This document shows, in pieces, positions 23,200 to 64,000 of a stretch of 64,000 nt of DNA (the stretch's first letter is position 1; each line of letters starts with the position of its first letter). The notes under the pieces were generated by a model. That model was not told the origin of the DNA. It ran no database searches and saw only the letters and a program-made list of their open reading frames with translations. Location: positions 14,987 to 78,986 of the forward strand of contig JAFQSM010000099.1 in the NCBI GenBank assembly GCA_017409575.1, given 5' to 3'. The DNA is from Clostridia bacterium. Its GTDB lineage: Bacteria > Bacillota > Clostridia > Monoglobales > Monoglobaceae. Made by a program: the position numbers and the translations under genes.

Positions 23200-23275
23200 G
23201 CACCATTAGCTCAGCTGGTAGAGCACCTGACTCTTAATCAGGGTGTCCACGGTTCGAGTCCGTGATGGTGTACCA
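23200..23275 (+). tRNA. tRNA-Lys (anticodon CUU)
   Basis: Manual cloverleaf: acceptor GCACCAT/ATGGTGT, D-arm GCTC-AGCTGGTA-GAGC, anticodon arm CCTGA-CTCTTAA-TCAGG, T-arm CACGG-TTCGAGT-CCGTG, encoded CCA. Confidence 0.9.
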
Positions 23276-53177: not shown

Positions 53178-53254
53178 GGTCCGGTAGTTCAGTTGGTTAG
53201 AATGCCAGCCTGTCACGCTGGAGGTCGTGGGTTCGAGCCCCATCCGGATCGCCA
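53178..53254 (+). tRNA. tRNA-Asp (anticodon GUC)
   Basis: Manual cloverleaf: acceptor GGTCCGG/CCGGATC, anticodon arm CCAGC-CTGTCAC-GCTGG, T-arm GTGGG-TTCGAGC-CCCAT, encoded CCA. Confidence 0.9.
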
Positions 53255-53258
53255 TTTT

Positions 53259-53334
<76 letters not shown>

Positions 53335-58601: not shown

Positions 58602-59630
58602 TTACCAAACCTCTGCGATTTCCTTAATAAGCTTTTCGGTTTTTCCCCATCCAAGGCATGGGTCTGTAATGGACTTACCGTAAATACATTCACCGATTTT
58701 TTGCGAACCATCCTCTATATAACTTTCTATCATAAATCCTTTGAGCAATTTTTTGATTTTTGCATCGTGTCTTGCGCTGTGCAGCACTTCCTTTGCAATC
58801 CTTGTTTGCTCAAGATATTTCTTGCCCGAATTCGCGTGGTTTGTGTCAACAATCACCCCGGGATTTTGAAGTCCGCTTGACTCATACATATCACAAAGAT
58901 GAATCAAATCTTCATAATGATAATTAGGCATAGACTGCCCTTGCTTGTTTACATATCCGCGCAAAATTGCATGCGCAAGAGAATTTCCCTCAGAATGGAC
59001 TTCCCACCCTCTGTATATAAAGGTATGCTTGTGCTGAGCCGCGGTAATTGAGTTCATCATAACCGAAATATCACCGCTCGTGGGATTTTTCATACCCACA
59101 GGCAAATCAAGTCCGCTTGCAGTAAGGCGGTGCTGCTGGTTTTCTACCGACCTTGCACCAACGGCTACATAAGCAAGAATATCACTGAGGTACCTGTGGT
59201 TTTCGGGATACAGCATTTCGTCAGCGCACGAAAATCCTGTTTCGGACAGCGCACGCATATGAAGCTGGCGTATCGCAACAATCCCCTTGTACATATCAGG
59301 TTTTTCGGTTGGGTTTGGCTGATGAAGCATACCCTTGTAGCCGTCACCTGTTGTGCGAGGCTTGTTTGTGTAAATCCTCGGGATTATAAGAATTTTTTCT
59401 TCAACTTCTTCCTGCACTTTTCTAAGACGCGAGATATAATCTATTACACTATCCTCATTATCTGCCGAGCACGGACCTATTATAAGCGCAAGCTTTTCGG
59501 ATTTCCCCGAAAAAATATCACTTATCTCGTTTGCTCTTTTGCTGACCACCTTTGCAAGCTCGTCCGAAAGCGGATATTGCTCCTTTACCTCTTTTGGTAT
59601 TGGTAATTTCTTTTCAAAAATCATATTCAT
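58602..59630 (-). CDS. aroG: 3-deoxy-7-phosphoheptulonate (DAHP) synthase, class I
   Basis: Start trimmed to MNMIFEKKLPIP (ATG at 59630, AAGAGG 9 nt upstream). IIGPCSADNEDS and KPRTTGDGYKGM motifs. Confidence 0.85.
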   Translation of the reverse strand: MNMIFEKKLPIPKEVKEQYPLSDELAKVVSKRANEISDIFSGKSEKLALIIGPCSADNEDSVIDYISRLRKVQEEVEEKILIIPRIYTNKPRTTGDGYKGMLHQPNPTEKPDMYKGIVAIRQLHMRALSETGFSCADEMLYPENHRYLSDILAYVAVGARSVENQQHRLTASGLDLPVGMKNPTSGDISVMMNSITAAQHKHTFIYRGWEVHSEGNSLAHAILRGYVNKQGQSMPNYHYEDLIHLCDMYESSGLQNPGVIVDTNHANSGKKYLEQTRIAKEVLHSARHDAKIKKLLKGFMIESYIEDGSQKIGECIYGKSITDPCLGWGKTEKLIKEIAEVW

Positions 59631-59668: not shown

Positions 59669-59911
59669 TTATGCTTTGCGCCTTTTTTGAGTTAGCCTGG
59701 ATTTTTGCTCCCCGCAAAATCTGCATTTGTATATAGTTTCATATACCTTGACTTTGCCGGGAACAAACCTTTCTGATTTTATGTGAATTTCGCCTCTTAA
59801 ATTCGGCTCAGTAAGGGTTTCAAGAATCTGTGTTTGCTCTTCTTTCACAAGCTTTTTTTCAACCTTTTTCATCGCAAATATTCTGCCGCATTTTAAACAT
59901 TTTTTAAACAT
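59669..59911 (-). CDS. Hypothetical 80-aa basic zinc-ribbon protein
   Basis: CLKCG...CRFCG (CxxC-x55-CxxC) with a lysine/arginine-rich C-terminus. Sits between the DUF2500 gene and aroG on the same strand. Confidence 0.5.
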   Translation of the reverse strand: MFKKCLKCGRIFAMKKVEKKLVKEEQTQILETLTEPNLRGEIHIKSERFVPGKVKVYETIYKCRFCGEQKSRLTQKRRKA

Positions 59912-59933: not shown

Positions 59934-60242
59934 TCATTGAAAGCTTACTATTCTATTCCCCTTGTATTTCAAGGTGCCTTTTGTCTTAATTTTGTAGCTG
60001 TTGTACGAAAACTCCGAAACAGCAAAAGAAAGTTTTTTGTCCTTTGTTTTAAATACCACTATGTACCGCTGCCTTTTGAATGTCCCCTGAACTTTGGAAA
60101 CTATGTCCGTCCTGTATTTGTCAACAACTTCTGCCTCGACAGTTTTTACAGGTGCCAGTTTGTCTGCAATGATTTTTTTGATAATCAAAAACCAACACAG
60201 CAAAAACAGGCTTGCAAAAATTATATTAACTACATCAGACAT
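59934..60242 (-). CDS. DUF2500-like membrane-anchored protein
   Basis: 102 aa. N-terminal TM helix, then the pattern VEAEVVDKY...RQRYIVVFKTKDKKLSFAVSEFSYNSYKIKTKGTLKYKGNRIVSF typical of DUF2500 as I recall it. AGAGGTG Shine-Dalgarno. Confidence 0.6.
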   Translation of the reverse strand: MSDVVNIIFASLFLLCWFLIIKKIIADKLAPVKTVEAEVVDKYRTDIVSKVQGTFKRQRYIVVFKTKDKKLSFAVSEFSYNSYKIKTKGTLKYKGNRIVSFQ

Positions 60243-60288
60243 TTTATCACCTCTTTTACCCCTGTATCAAGTCAGTAGAACAGTGAAT

Positions 60289-60515
60289 AATAAGAACCAC
60301 GACCCGGTAACGCAATCAAAGATTGCGACCGGGTACCCCGGAACCTTGTTGTATTTCTCTACAATAAGAACCACGACCCGGTAACGCAATCAAAGATTGC
60401 GACCGGGTACCCCGGAACCTTGTTGTATTTCTCTACAATAAGAACCACCACGAAATATAACGAAATCAAATATTTCTATATTTCGGAGAGCCTTGTTATG
60501 CCAAGGCATAATATG
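60289..60515. repeat. Tandem array of three ~74-nt two-hairpin modules (two identical, one diverged with compensatory changes)
   Basis: 60289-60362 and 60363-60436 are identical. The third module (60437-60515) keeps AATAAGAACCAC, TAACG-AATCAAA and CCTTGTT but rebuilds both stems from different bases. Confidence 0.9.
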
Positions 60516-60592
60516 GACCTACCAAATTTCCAATAAAAATTTCACTAATTTTCTTTAGAGCCTGCGAGAATACTGGATTCTCTCGCTATTGT

Positions 60593-60621
60593 ATTATATC
60601 ATATATATCTAAAAATTGTAA
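60593..60621 (-). promoter_or_regulatory. Candidate promoter that would give a ~340-nt leader across the repeat array into the DUF2500 operon
   Basis: Minus strand: TTACAA (60621-60616), 17-nt spacer, TGa-TATAAT (60598-60593, extended -10). Confidence 0.45.
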
Positions 60622-60873
60622 ATTAATCTTTAAAAATCGGGGACTTGACACAAGTAATATTCCATTGCCGTCAATCCTATATTTACTTTTTGGGGCTCCC
60701 TTTCTATTAATCATTCCTCTCCTTGATATTTAGTTTTTTTCTATTAAACTTTTCTGTCAGTCTCCTCCTTGTTGGATATATTTCAGAACGCATCTGTTGC
60801 AAAGAATATCGTTGCTTAAAGCAGAATTTTATGCATTCTGATTTTTTTAATCACGATTTCTCAACTTCATCTT

Positions 60874-61890
60874 TCATTTCATCTTGTTGCTACTATTTTT
60901 TCTCTGCTTCAACAAAAGAACTTTTGATGGAAAGAAGAAAAAATTCAAACACTTAACTTTCTTCGCAATTTTTGCTGACAATACCGAAAATACTAATCCG
61001 CAAGCAGTTCCCAAAAGAACATGAATCCACCACTGGTTTATATTCAAGCGAAGCAGGATTATTCTTATTCCTGCAGTAAATATGGTATGCAACAAATAAA
61101 TCTGAAAAGAATATTTGTTTATAAAATCGAGAAAACGAGCGATTATCTTACTGTTCTGGAGTATAGAAATAAACATAATACTTGAATATATTCCGAACAG
61201 TATCATTATTTCCTTTATGAATGGGGCTTCTATTTTGTTTAGTAAAACAAAAATGATACCTGTTACTATATGCAGTATCACAACCAGGCATTTAGCCCAG
61301 GTTGAAAGTTTAGTAAGGCTTTTAAAATCGATGCATGTGCCAATTCCAAAAGCAAGTGCCGAATAAAATACCACATCCAAACTTCCAAGCGGAATATCAA
61401 AAATCGGTGCTAAATAGCCTATTAAAACAGCTATAATTGTAATTTGCCAATTTTTTAATATCCCTGAAAAAGTTGTCCAGATACAAAACAAAAAGAATAG
61501 TGCATATAAGAACCAATATTGTGCAACAGGAGATTTCCATATATTCAGAATATCTGATGGTTCAAAACCGGTATTCGATTCTCCAACTAAACTGTTTATC
61601 AATACATATATAGCAGAAAAAACTATGTATGGAATAGCGAGATTGTAAAGCTTATAGAGAAGAAATCCACATTTGGTTTTTTTGTTTTTCCACTCTCCGG
61701 TAACTTTATACACAACACCGCTTAAAAACAGAAATAGTGAAACATGGAAAGACCATATAAACTTTTCCATTCCCCCAAAAAACTCAGGGATATGTATGCC
61801 TCCAAGTCTTATTCCCATAATAACATGGCCACACAAAACCAAAAAACAAGCATATCCTTTCAGCCTGTCAACCAGTACATTTCTTTCCAT
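60874..61890 (-). CDS. Acyltransferase 3 family membrane protein (O-acyltransferase of glycans)
   Basis: Start trimmed to MERNVLVDRLKGYACFLVLCGH (typical acyl_transf_3 N-terminus with a conserved His) after AAGGAGGTG. About 10 TM helices. Confidence 0.8.
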   Translation of the reverse strand: MERNVLVDRLKGYACFLVLCGHVIMGIRLGGIHIPEFFGGMEKFIWSFHVSLFLFLSGVVYKVTGEWKNKKTKCGFLLYKLYNLAIPYIVFSAIYVLINSLVGESNTGFEPSDILNIWKSPVAQYWFLYALFFLFCIWTTFSGILKNWQITIIAVLIGYLAPIFDIPLGSLDVVFYSALAFGIGTCIDFKSLTKLSTWAKCLVVILHIVTGIIFVLLNKIEAPFIKEIMILFGIYSSIMFISILQNSKIIARFLDFINKYSFQIYLLHTIFTAGIRIILLRLNINQWWIHVLLGTACGLVFSVLSAKIAKKVKCLNFFFFPSKVLLLKQRKNSSNKMK

Positions 61891-61907
61891 ATTCCACCTC
61901 CTTAAAT

Positions 61908-62837
61908 TCATTTTACCTTTTCCTTGCTTCTGCAAGCTGCAGAAACAATATATTTCGGTCTTCCTTTAATTTCATCATAAATACGGGCAACATAATATCC
62001 GATAATACCAAGACTTATCATCATAATACTTCCTATAAATATCAGGATAATTATAACAGTTGTCATACCTTCAAGTGCAATGCCACGGATTTTATCAACA
62101 AGTGCCCAAATGCTGAAAACAGCAGTAATAATAAGCATCATAACGCCAAGCACGGTTACAATCTGCATCGGCGCTGTTGAATAGGCAGAAATGTTTGAAA
62201 CGGCATATTTCAAAAGGCCTATGGCAGACCATTTTGATTCACCCTCTAATCTTTCGTTAACCTCAAACTCAACCGTTGTTTTGTTAAATCCTACCCAAAA
62301 TGAAATTGCTCTGAAGAAGCCCTTTCTTTCAGGAATTCTGTTGAGTATATCTACAACTTTGCGGTCAAGCAGTTTAAAATCAGAAGCGTTTGACATATCA
62401 AACCCTACTACCGAACTGATAATTGAATAAAAACTTCTTGCAGCAAAACCATGCATTTTGCTTTCTTTGCCTCGTGTTTTTTTTATGCCCTCAACAATTT
62501 CATATCCTTCCTGCCACAAACGATACATTTCCACAATTTTCTCAGGAGGGTGCTGAAGGTCGCAATCAATTACTACAACTGCATCTCCTTTGGCACTTGC
62601 AAGTCCTGCCGATATGGCTGCTTCTTTCCCAAAATTTCTTGAAAAATGAAGTCCATGTATATTTTTTTCTTTATCGGCTAAATTCTTTATTTTCCCATAT
62701 GTAGTATCCGCAGAGCCATCATCAATAAAAATAATTTCATTGTCAATCTGAGCTTTTTCTAAAATCTCCGATATCGTATAATATGCTCTTTCCACGGATA
62801 ATTCCTCATTATATGCAGGAATAATTACGGACAGCAT
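61908..62837 (-). CDS. Family-2 glycosyltransferase, GtrB/polyprenyl-phosphate glycosyltransferase type
   Basis: 309 aa, LSVIIPAYNEE, FIDDGSAD, DCDLQHPP, and two C-terminal TM helices. Confidence 0.85.
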   Translation of the reverse strand: MLSVIIPAYNEELSVERAYYTISEILEKAQIDNEIIFIDDGSADTTYGKIKNLADKEKNIHGLHFSRNFGKEAAISAGLASAKGDAVVVIDCDLQHPPEKIVEMYRLWQEGYEIVEGIKKTRGKESKMHGFAARSFYSIISSVVGFDMSNASDFKLLDRKVVDILNRIPERKGFFRAISFWVGFNKTTVEFEVNERLEGESKWSAIGLLKYAVSNISAYSTAPMQIVTVLGVMMLIITAVFSIWALVDKIRGIALEGMTTVIIILIFIGSIMMISLGIIGYYVARIYDEIKGRPKYIVSAACRSKEKVK

Positions 62838-63962
62838 TTAAACACCCCCTGAATTTTCATTAAAAACTTTCTCAAGCTGAGCCACCGGCATAGGTCTGTA
62901 ATAATAATAACCCTGAAGGAGATCACAACCTGCTTTTATCACCGCTTCTTCTTGCTCTTTCGTTTCAATTCCTTCGCATAATGTCTTAAAACCAATATCC
63001 CCGGCAGTACGGATAATATTTTTCAAAATGATAAATCCTGTATCGGTAACCGAATTATGTGTTATTGATTTATCAATCTTCACAACAGAAATATCAAGAT
63101 TTTGCAAATCACCAAAGGTTGTATATCCACTTCCAAAATCATCAAGAAAGATAGACATGCCTTTTTCTTTAAGAACTGCTAAATTATTTATCATTTGCGT
63201 TCTTTCTTCTCCGGTTATGTTTTTATCCTCTAATATTTCAACCGCCAGACACGAAAAATTCAAATCGTATTTTTGTGTGATAGCTATTATCTTCTCCGCA
63301 AACTGCGGTTCACACAATGTTGATCTTGAAAAATTGATGGTATATTTATAAGCTTCTCTTCGTTTTTTATCGTTTGAAATCCATTTGCAGTTTTTTTCAA
63401 AAATATAATAATCAAATTTATCACTGATTCCAACAGAATCCACCGCAGACAAAAAACTACCCGGTGTTAATACACCCTCGCTTTCTGAATTTAGGCGGGA
63501 CAGTACTTCAGCTCCTATTATTTTCTTTGTTTTTGCATCCAAAACAGGTTGATATTCAAGGAAGAAACGATTGTTATCAATTTCTTTTTCTATATTATTT
63601 TCTATTTTTATCTTTTTTTCAAGTGCCTTTCCGCCAGATACATTCCACTCAGCGTATGGAACATTTTCATTCTTCGCAAACAAATAAGCCTGTTTGGCAC
63701 GGCCTATTGCATCATCAAACGACACTTGTGTGCCAAACGCAAAATATACACCAATTCTGATGTCAATAATATTAAGCGCGCTGTGTTTTAAGAGACATTT
63801 GTTCAACTCACCAAAACAAGTTTCGATTTTTTTGCGCGCCTTTTCCATATTCCATTTTGAAAGAACAACAAAGTTTTTTTCTCCATATATGGCAATATTG
63901 CTGTCATCACCATCTGAGAAAGTTTCCAGCAAAACTATTTTTATTGCAGAAAAAACATTCAT
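62838..63962 (-). CDS. EAL-domain c-di-GMP phosphodiesterase with a degenerate GGDEF-like N-terminal domain
   Basis: 374 aa. EAL-domain motifs YQPV, EVLSR, DDFGSGYTT, KIDKS, EGIET, QGYYYYRP. Its stop TAA directly abuts the ATG of the GT2 gene. Confidence 0.85.
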   Translation of the reverse strand: MNVFSAIKIVLLETFSDGDDSNIAIYGEKNFVVLSKWNMEKARKKIETCFGELNKCLLKHSALNIIDIRIGVYFAFGTQVSFDDAIGRAKQAYLFAKNENVPYAEWNVSGGKALEKKIKIENNIEKEIDNNRFFLEYQPVLDAKTKKIIGAEVLSRLNSESEGVLTPGSFLSAVDSVGISDKFDYYIFEKNCKWISNDKKRREAYKYTINFSRSTLCEPQFAEKIIAITQKYDLNFSCLAVEILEDKNITGEERTQMINNLAVLKEKGMSIFLDDFGSGYTTFGDLQNLDISVVKIDKSITHNSVTDTGFIILKNIIRTAGDIGFKTLCEGIETKEQEEAVIKAGCDLLQGYYYYRPMPVAQLEKVFNENSGGV

Positions 63963-64000
63963 AGTCTGATGTGCTGAATAAAGACTTCTGAAATTGTCCA

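Follow-up and report, generated by a model that had tools for sequence, protein, structure and literature searches.

A tandem array of two-hairpin modules in a Clostridia genome as part of a candidate BOX-like promoter and leader element

A 64,000-nucleotide (nt) stretch of contig JAFQSM010000099.1 from a Clostridia bacterium (hereafter the window) contains, at 60289-60515, an array of three two-hairpin units upstream of an operon encoding a DUF2500 protein, a zinc-ribbon protein and 3-deoxy-D-arabino-heptulosonate 7-phosphate (DAHP) synthase. The question raised by this locus is whether the array is a dedicated regulatory leader of that operon, as the initial annotation of the window had suggested, or belongs to something of wider occurrence. 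On balance, and with moderate confidence, we read the array as the amplified internal module of a modular promoter and 5' leader element that is re-used in front of different genes and resembles BOX of Streptococcus pneumoniae. The element is real, conserved, structured and non-coding and belongs to no curated family. We class it as a new family within a known kind of element; should the module prove to bind a factor, it would be a new kind of regulator.

The array and its modules

Tandem Repeats Finder (TRF) detected a period-74 tandem array at 60289-60448 (2.2 copies, 100% matches), and a repeat search found the 74-mers at 60289-60362 and 60363-60436 to be identical and the third unit to retain AATAAGAACCAC, TAACG.AATCAAA.ATT and (G)CCTTGTT. 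Both results bore out the initial description of two identical 74-mers with a diverged third unit, and the helix sequences listed there for H1, H2 and the rebuilt unit 3 agreed exactly with the window. The gene-free gap around the array was 60243-60873. A covariance model of the 74-nt module (R1) was built, and the following modules were delimited:

60437 to 60523, minus strand: module M3 (type b), with H2' AUGCC/GGCAU and H1' CGAAAUAUA+GAAAU (R1, 74.0 bits, E 2.6e-15)
60363 to 60436, minus strand: module M2 (type a), with H2' GUA/UAC and H1' ACCCGGU+CGCAAUC (TRF, repeat search and R1)
60289 to 60362, minus strand: module M1 (type a), identical to M2 (TRF, repeat search and R1)

Module M3 was near-identical to the single module of another locus (L035; L numbers denote the loci compared), and the type-a H1 was common to L018, L020, L026, L027 and L048. 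The number of modules in the window is at least three and is not settled by the assemblies: a 100-N gap interrupts the array in same-species scaffolds, five contigs (L003-L005, L058 and L059) end within it, and contig L058 reads into a third type-a module. The type-a modules also contain a palindrome, GGGTACCC, with a KpnI site, which lies at the 5' foot of H1' (60326-60338 and 60400-60412 in plus-strand coordinates); it was kept in L018, L026, L027 and L048 and partly kept in L014 and L045A, whereas type b lacks it.

The proposal that the stems are conserved by compensating changes was upheld. In a model-guided alignment of 14 distinct modules, 92.1% of the cells in the module helices were paired and 11 of the 19 base pairs had changed on both sides, values that none of 500 shuffles reached, while sliding the partners by 1-3 columns left 31-43% paired; the alignment was fitted to the structure and thus leans towards it, but the margin was large all the same. 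H1 occurred in at least four rebuilt versions (ACCCGGU+CGCAAUC, CGAAAUAUA+GAAAU, GGCGU+CAAAAUU and, in L014, ACCCAAC+GAAAUC), and H2 occurred as AUGC/GCAU, UUGC/GCAA, GUA/UAC and CACGC/GCGUG. The linkers AACAAGGUUC and GUGGUUCUUAUU were almost invariant across modules, and each hairpin was followed by a GGUUC motif (GCGGGUUCU, AAGGUUC and GUGGUUCUUAUU). The plus strand of 60270-60540 folded into the described hairpins at -90.6 kcal/mol (z = -9.3, 0/200 shuffles), and the minus strand of the array also folded well (z = -5.5 versus shuffles).

Searching the whole window against Rfam 15 revealed three tRNAs only, none of them at the array, in keeping with the earlier remark that the hairpins match no known riboswitch or leader class. 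A permissive search of 60200-60900 (E up to 10, T-box included) gave nothing credible (best E = 2.4), and no Rfam match, whether at gathering or at permissive thresholds, overlapped the element in seven homologous loci or in the module-less copies described below. The hairpins had also been said to lack a following U-tract; indeed, scanning of either strand found no intrinsic terminator, that is, no G+C-rich hairpin directly followed by a U tract, at any of them. On the minus strand, a U-rich run begins 5 nt past H1'. Searching the literature for the conserved sequence strings turned up nothing of relevance.

The larger element and its copies

A scan of a genome collection with the pattern AGAACCAC-N4-14-TAACGNAATCAAA, which needs a module, returned 21 loci, five of which were real (L018, L020, L026, L027 and L035). 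These came from Clostridia metagenome-assembled genomes (MAGs), one of them Acutalibacteraceae, and each had one module with extended conserved flanks. A metagenome scan added L045, L048 and L056, and the remaining rows of both scans were mostly chance matches in coding DNA. With filters off, R1 found only the three array units in the window; outside it, R1 found single modules in L014, L018, L020, L026, L027, L035, L048 and L056 and two in L045, including an extra homologue at L014 5796-5882. The covariance-model check suggested by the initial annotation thus matched the array and modules in other Clostridia. In L045, the two modules are of different type and lie back to back in inverted orientation (640-850). 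In L056 (1470-1720), a canonical terminator (1540-1570) stands where one L045 module would be, together with a 12-codon open reading frame (ORF; MKATERKVSACV) that has a good ribosome-binding site. Searches of phage and plasmid collections returned chance AT-rich matches only, and viral contigs contained no copy, with six chance matches in coding DNA.

Alignment of the homologues placed the array at the centre of a larger element on the minus strand, at ~60251-60658 in the window. The coordinates given initially therefore hold for the array, and the conserved feature reaches well beyond 60289-60515. Towards the gene, the order of the element was as follows: inverted repeat (consensus TTACTCGTGTCAAGT), promoter block, 5' hairpin P0, GGGUUCUAA, purine-rich stretch, AAUAGUAGGUCC(A)UAUU, module, AUUCACUGUUCUCC and second inverted repeat GACTTGACAC. 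The backbone without a module measured ~200 bp, and its pyrimidine-rich tail ended in the second inverted repeat, which contains TTGACA. In the window, the parts on either side of the modules were:

60642 to 60658, minus strand: left imperfect inverted repeat (plus strand GACTTGACACAAGTAAT), pairing with 60263-60273 (11 nt, 91% complementary)
60593 to 60622, minus strand: predicted sigma-70-type promoter, TTTACA-18-TATAAT with TG, directed towards DUF2500 (promoter scan, 11/12)
60564 to 60586, minus strand: 5' hairpin P0, RNA GCGAGAG-AAUCCAGUA-UUCUCGC (RNAalifold, 9 copies)
60524 to 60563, minus strand: purine-rich segment ending in the 5' arm of a small hairpin (..UUUGGUAGGUCC; alignments)
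60251 to 60298, minus strand: pyrimidine-rich tail GGUUCUUAUUAUUCACUGUUCUACUGACUUGAUACA, including the right inverted repeat at 60263-60273 (nhmmer profile positions 173-219, E 5e-07)

The terminal inverted repeats were perfect in L067a (13/13) and matched at 10/11 positions in the window, 10/12 in L014 and 8/9 in L066. Single-sequence folds showed complementarity between the purine-rich segment and the pyrimidine-rich tail. The module sits in the loop and 3' arm of a small conserved hairpin, AAUAGUA-GGUCC-UAUUAUU, and is bounded by the direct repeats GGTCCTATT and GGTTCTTATT, 9-10 nt in length. The module-less junction reads ..TAGGTCCTATTATTCACTG.. and L027 with its module reads TAGGTCCTATT-(66 nt)-GGTTCTTATTATTCACTG; from these junctions, the module is therefore an insert bounded by 9-10 nt direct repeats.

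The module-stripped backbone was searched against 75 loci by local blastn and with an nhmmer profile. Complete module-less backbones were found at L066 9747-9950, L067 12494-12678 and L068-L071 3347-3532, truncated backbones at L067 13293-13380 and 14249-14331, and tail fragments at L026 2565-2609 and L014 3317-3344. The conserved ends thus enclosed no module in L066, L067a and L068, one in six other loci (L014, L018, L026, L027 and L035 among them), and at least three in the window and L058. Because other copies carry none or one, the array is, on comparison of the copies, not a fixed three-module architecture. L067 had three backbone copies within 2 kb of one 20-kb locus, which led us to reject a single-copy housekeeping RNA. 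The initial annotation had named dispersed copies at unrelated intergenic sites as evidence that would refute it; such copies were found between genomes and, in the case of the backbone, inside a single locus (the three of L067). Six of the nine module loci other than the window were within ~1 kb of a contig end, a position that fits sequence shared between copies, strains or co-occurring species. The element also showed near-identity between species that share only 66-69% identity in their DUF2500 proteins.

The tail was considered separately. In the window, it carries a -35-like TTGATA (TTGATA-18-TAAAAT, promoter scan), and homology with the element-free relative L012 restarts ~20 nt before the ATG. 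A GTG- or ATG-started ORF in the tail, MVLIIHCSPDLT (60251-60300 and homologues), was rejected by inspection as a leader peptide: it has no Shine-Dalgarno sequence, its ends vary and its substitutions are mostly non-synonymous, so that translation of it is improbable. Inspection also gave no support to a UUCUCC tail that would sequester the ribosome-binding site downstream, as the window has UUCUAC. A Spo0A-box-like TGTCGAA lies 15-17 nt downstream of the tail TTGACA in L018 (~225-250), L027 (minus strand, ~95-125) and L014 (5900-5930), and also occurs in a tail remnant upstream of the His_Phos gene of L068 (9905-9935).

Strand, promoter and downstream genes

The good minus-strand promoter of the initial annotation was recovered by the scan (60622 to 60593) and aligned with the promoter block GTTTGCCGAT..TATTTACATATACTATCGG, which is conserved among the homologues. 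The scan also found TTGCCG-16-TATACT in the promoter blocks of L014 and L067; a promoter-like block was located directly upstream of P0 in every complete copy, and this block holds a conserved GCCGAT..ATCGG inverted repeat. A 42-amino acid (aa) ORF called here in public assemblies (60586-60714, minus strand) is probably spurious: it lacks a Pfam match, and its span runs into both the inverted repeat and the promoter of the element.

P0 covaried between copies (GCGAGAA/UUCUCGC, GCAGGAA/UUCCUGC). Among the nine copies, pair 8-26 was GC in five, AU in three and GU in one, pair 9-25 was AU in four, GC in three and GU in two, and pair 12-22 was GU in one; P0 thus showed four G.U cells and zero A.C cells on the gene-sense (minus) strand, on which the small hairpin also has an invariant G.U. 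Only P0 and the small hairpin were informative in this respect. The wobble pairs of the module did not assign a strand, as six cells were of minus sense versus five of plus sense; an invariant G.T in outer H2 can pair on the plus strand only, and the RNAalifold energies of the module were alike on both strands (-27.6 vs -25.7 kcal/mol).

We assigned the element to the minus strand of the window, where it would be transcribed as a 5' leader, on the basis of the G.U pairs (those of P0 and of the small hairpin), the promoter block and the direction of all 11 copies towards the next gene. The initial annotation had left the strand unresolved, which stands for the module alone (6 vs 5 wobbles and the H2 G.T), whereas for the whole element the P0 pairs point to minus. 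Its suggestion of a ~340-nt leader towards DUF2500 agrees with the promoter, the promoter block of the homologues and the P0 G.U pairs; the operon-specific role that went with it is not borne out by the downstream genes. In the window, these are:

59934 to 60242, minus strand: DUF2500 gene (PF10694), first gene downstream of the element
59669 to 59911: 80-aa CxxC protein, after DUF2500
58602 to 59630: DAHP synthase (PF00793), after the 80-aa protein

Each of the 11 backbone copies is directed towards the gene that follows it, with a distance to the gene start of less than ~140 nt. The genes concerned were DUF2500 (window and L066), YitT (L035 and L068), His_Phos_1 (L026), DUF559 (L018), RhuM (L014), a 151-aa ORF, Bro-N and GDSL lipase genes (L067), and one truncated short ORF (L027). 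DUF2500 has many protein homologues. We compared the window with the two closest operons of DUF2500, 80-aa protein and DAHP synthase genes (L012 and L013; DUF2500 86% and 80% identical, AroG 95-96% identical) and found that the element was absent upstream of both, where the regions were unrelated to the window and homology to it ended ~20 nt ahead of the start codon. It was also absent near DUF2500 in L060-L065. In L066, the element precedes DUF2500, yet no zinc-ribbon or aroG gene follows. We therefore rejected synteny with DUF2500, for which L066 is the sole second case, and the proposed link to the DUF2500/zinc-ribbon/DAHP synthase operon is not supported, as the closest operons lack the element and unrelated genes follow it elsewhere. 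L012 (2840-3000) and L013 (2870-3000) have hairpin-rich leaders of their own (~130-150 nt) after extended -10 promoters, unrelated to each other and to the window.

The His_Phos gene gave a similar picture. The His_Phos protein of L074 is 97% identical to that of L026, and L074 lacks the element. Homology between these two loci starts ~33 nt before the ATG, and the tail TTGACA of L026 is 18 nt upstream of a native TATTGT, so that together they look like a hybrid promoter in this sequence comparison. The element was absent upstream of His_Phos in L067, L068 and L072 and was also absent from L073, with a tail-like remnant kept in L068; the comparison of L067-L074 speaks against synteny with His_Phos. 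In L068-L071, the region downstream of His_Phos is a strain-level insertion hotspot: from ~10640, after an identical His_Phos, L068/L069 carry DUF559, serine recombinases and KilA-N, and L070/L071 carry RelB/YafQ. L067 10700-15400 is an accessory run (HNH_2, small ORFs, Bro-N and GDSL lipase), three members of which are preceded by a full or truncated backbone; its appearance is that of a cassette-like region in which a promoter recurs.

The window itself is ordinary core chromosome (nusA-infB-truB-ribF, groEL, radA, dnaE, whiA, murB, hprK and guaB), with tRNA genes at 23200-23272, 53178-53251 and 53259-53331. The acyltransferase gene on the other side of the element ends at 60874 and, like DUF2500, is on the minus strand. 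Right after the element, 60874-64000 has a GC content of 0.34-0.35 versus ~0.42 and encodes Acyl_transf_3, a glycosyltransferase 2 and an EAL protein. This low-GC stretch is absent upstream of DUF2500 in L012 and L013 and looks like a strain- or species-variable surface-polysaccharide islet. The element was found at synteny breakpoints in the comparisons of the window with L012/L013 and of L026 with L074, and eight same-species contigs had it in one orientation.

Readings of the element and comparison with known systems

In the BOX-like reading, the element would consist of an A part, a B module in n copies and a C part, by analogy with the pneumococcal BOX. Its backbone would have been copied in front of unrelated genes across a clade of uncultured gut and rumen Clostridia, in a manner of spread between sites that we infer; since it always points at a gene, it would supply a promoter and a structured leader. 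Transcription is predicted to start from the promoter of the element. The number of modules (zero, one or at least three) would shift most simply by unequal recombination or slippage at the direct repeats. In the window, one type-b and at least two identical type-a modules would give a ~340-nt leader for DUF2500, the zinc-ribbon gene and aroG, and the type-a module was probably amplified recently beside an older type-b module, because the two 74-mers are 100% identical. By the same analogy, the number of modules may tune the folding, stability or translation of the leader, as BOX modules do.

Several points weigh against this reading. The window holds only one copy of the element, and the genome and metagenome scans, with patterns that required the module, gave a single match per MAG. 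The inverted repeats were weak in L027 and L035 and absent in L026, and no clear target-site duplication was found at the flanks of the element. Additionally, no transposase, integrase/recombinase or cas gene was found in the window (Pfam for 50 ORFs and annotations for the rest), nor a transposase, integrase or cas gene beside the copies, nor any transposase in the gene tables of the homologous loci. The comparison with BOX is one of architecture, and the invariant G.T of H2 pairs on the plus strand only, so that the module may fold on either strand. Finally, a selected regulatory RNA would account for the very high conservation and the 11/11 orientation no less well than a selfish repeat would.

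This last point leads to the alternative that survives best, which we nevertheless regard only as a tentative possibility: a new class of selected cis-regulatory leader RNA domain, in which the hairpins followed by GGUUC would bind a protein or RNA polymerase. Invariant linkers beside stems that vary with compensation are what such a domain would show, as are the uniform orientation, the conserved inverted repeat in the promoter block, the near-identity between species with diverged DUF2500 proteins, and the recurrence of DUF2500 and YitT, each downstream in two species. That the domain would impose a common control (stability, antitermination or translation) on accessory genes, with tandem modules multiplying the sites, is about as doubtful, as the downstream genes share no function. 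Moreover, the module is dispensable (zero in some copies), the truncated b and c copies of L067 still precede genes, and no candidate binding protein is linked to the element. The related proposal that the two-hairpin module with its GGUUC linkers is a portable, dose-adjustable platform for a protein or RNA polymerase, with post-initiation control of accessory genes and a copy number tuned by tandem amplification, seems to us no likelier than that.

An independent trans-acting small RNA would also explain the conserved promoter and 5' hairpin and the cross-species conservation, which is at the level of structural RNAs. Such an RNA would combine a promoter of its own with a 5' hairpin, an A-rich stretch, further hairpins and a U-rich 3' part, and the U-rich run 5 nt after H1' could belong to a 3' end made there by processing or non-canonical termination (GUGGUUCUUAUUAUU). 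However, scanning of the copies in the window, L014, L066 and the L067 region detected no intrinsic terminator, the tail continues straight into the ribosome-binding site of the next gene, and truncated copies put the promoter directly onto a gene; both the small RNA and this origin of its 3' end are therefore unlikely.

Equally improbable in our view is a site acting at the DNA level, whether an invertible promoter, a site of recombination or attachment bordering a variable island, or a set of operator palindromes. Inverted repeats do flank a promoter, the element is at a synteny breakpoint in both close-relative comparisons, the GC content drops to 0.34 beyond it, and the wobbles of the module are balanced between the strands (6 vs 5). 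Against this, the G.U pairs of P0 are strand-specific, no recombinase is nearby, and stems that differ in sequence inside one array speak against recognition by one sequence-specific DNA-binding protein. The eight same-species contigs and 11/11 copies in one orientation also oppose it; with no recombinase in the window, the former led us to reject an inverton.

The weakest alternative, a dedicated riboswitch-like or zinc-ribbon-bound leader through which the DUF2500/zinc-ribbon/DAHP synthase operon would answer aromatic amino acids, is very improbable and, as far as comparative data go, largely refuted already: the window array does sit between a good promoter and the operon and a module-less backbone precedes DUF2500 in L066, but the closest three-gene operons lack the element, L066 has neither zinc-ribbon gene nor aroG after DUF2500, unrelated genes follow the element elsewhere, and there is no terminator or other expression-platform feature and no Rfam match, T-box included.

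Other candidates were rejected more briefly. An integron attC array (a cluster of attC sites lacking integron-integrases, CALIN) was dismissed by inspection, as GTTGTAT and GTTATGC break the RRR rule of the paired core sites (RYYYAAC ... GTTRRRY), AAC is in a bulge and no cassettes lie between the units. A type III toxin-antitoxin system (ToxI-like) does not fit, as DUF2500 lies downstream where a ToxN-family gene would be expected and there is no terminator. By inspection, the CUGAUGA of a hammerhead occurs in L014 only, and CTTGATA, the candidate pC194/IS91-type nick site, occurs in the window only, with CTTGACA elsewhere. A tRNA-like fold, a PyrR loop, an ANTAR dual hairpin, DnaA boxes and sigma-H/-K/-E promoters were not supported on inspection.

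If the BOX-like reading is true, uncultured gut and rumen Clostridia have an element that delivers a ready-made promoter and leader to unrelated genes, and its expanding and contracting hairpin module would be a simple route to rewire and tune the expression of accessory genes. In MAGs, the element would cause breaks in assembly, and it would offer a candidate marker for strain typing. If the module is a binding platform, it would represent a new class of modular cis-regulatory leader. For annotation, the locus is a warning against reading a ligand- or operon-specific riboswitch from strong helix covariation of a leader alone.

Among known systems, the array resembles a mini-array of clustered regularly interspaced short palindromic repeats (CRISPR) in that a conserved stretch of ~31 nt alternates regularly with one of ~43 nt; unlike CRISPR, the 'spacers' are hairpins conserved across species, two of them are identical, and no cas genes were found in the window. 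Repetitive extragenic palindromic sequences (REPs), together with bacterial interspersed mosaic elements (BIMEs) and REP doublets forming hairpins (REPINs), are likewise hairpin-forming intergenic repeats that keep their pairing while the sequence drifts and occur in tandem or inverted arrangements, as in L045. However, REPs are 20-40 nt long, number hundreds per genome and have REP-associated tyrosine transposases (RAYTs), and nothing comparable was found for the element. The Correia elements of Neisseria, which are promoter-bearing miniature inverted-repeat transposable elements (MITEs), and mobile promoters are similarly short and non-coding with inverted repeats, and bring a promoter and structured RNA to unrelated genes (PMC3049150, PMC3575422); the re-use of promoters before unrelated genes is documented more generally (PMC3575422). 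Of the features of a MITE, the element has terminal inverted repeats, though imperfect or missing in some copies, while no target-site duplication, no cognate transposase or insertion sequence and no high copy number were seen.

Tandem riboswitches and other 5' leaders share with the element the position next to a promoter, covarying helices with conserved unpaired linkers, and the possibility of repeated domains. Unlike riboswitches, the element has no Rfam match, no expression platform and no consistent class of downstream gene, and its module is dispensable.

The closest architectural parallel is BOX, which belongs to another phylum-level lineage. The boxB unit is 45 nt long, and the module described here has 74 nt and two covarying hairpins. 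BOX exceeds 100 copies per genome and is found in either orientation, with enrichment between convergent genes, whereas the element is at least locally low in copy number, carries its own promoter block and was in one orientation in 11/11 copies. Like the element, BOX is a composite intergenic sequence with conserved ends, variable tandem internal modules and terminal inverted repeats (PMC3049150). It is transcribed with neighbouring genes and can alter their expression, with boxA and boxC stimulating downstream genes and boxB able to inhibit them (PMC3049150); transcription of the element would be similar. As boxB folds apart from boxA and boxC, it may be absent or repeated (PMC3049150). We favour the BOX-like reading because the element combines the same traits, namely conserved, mutually pairing ends with zero to n independently folding tandem modules between them.

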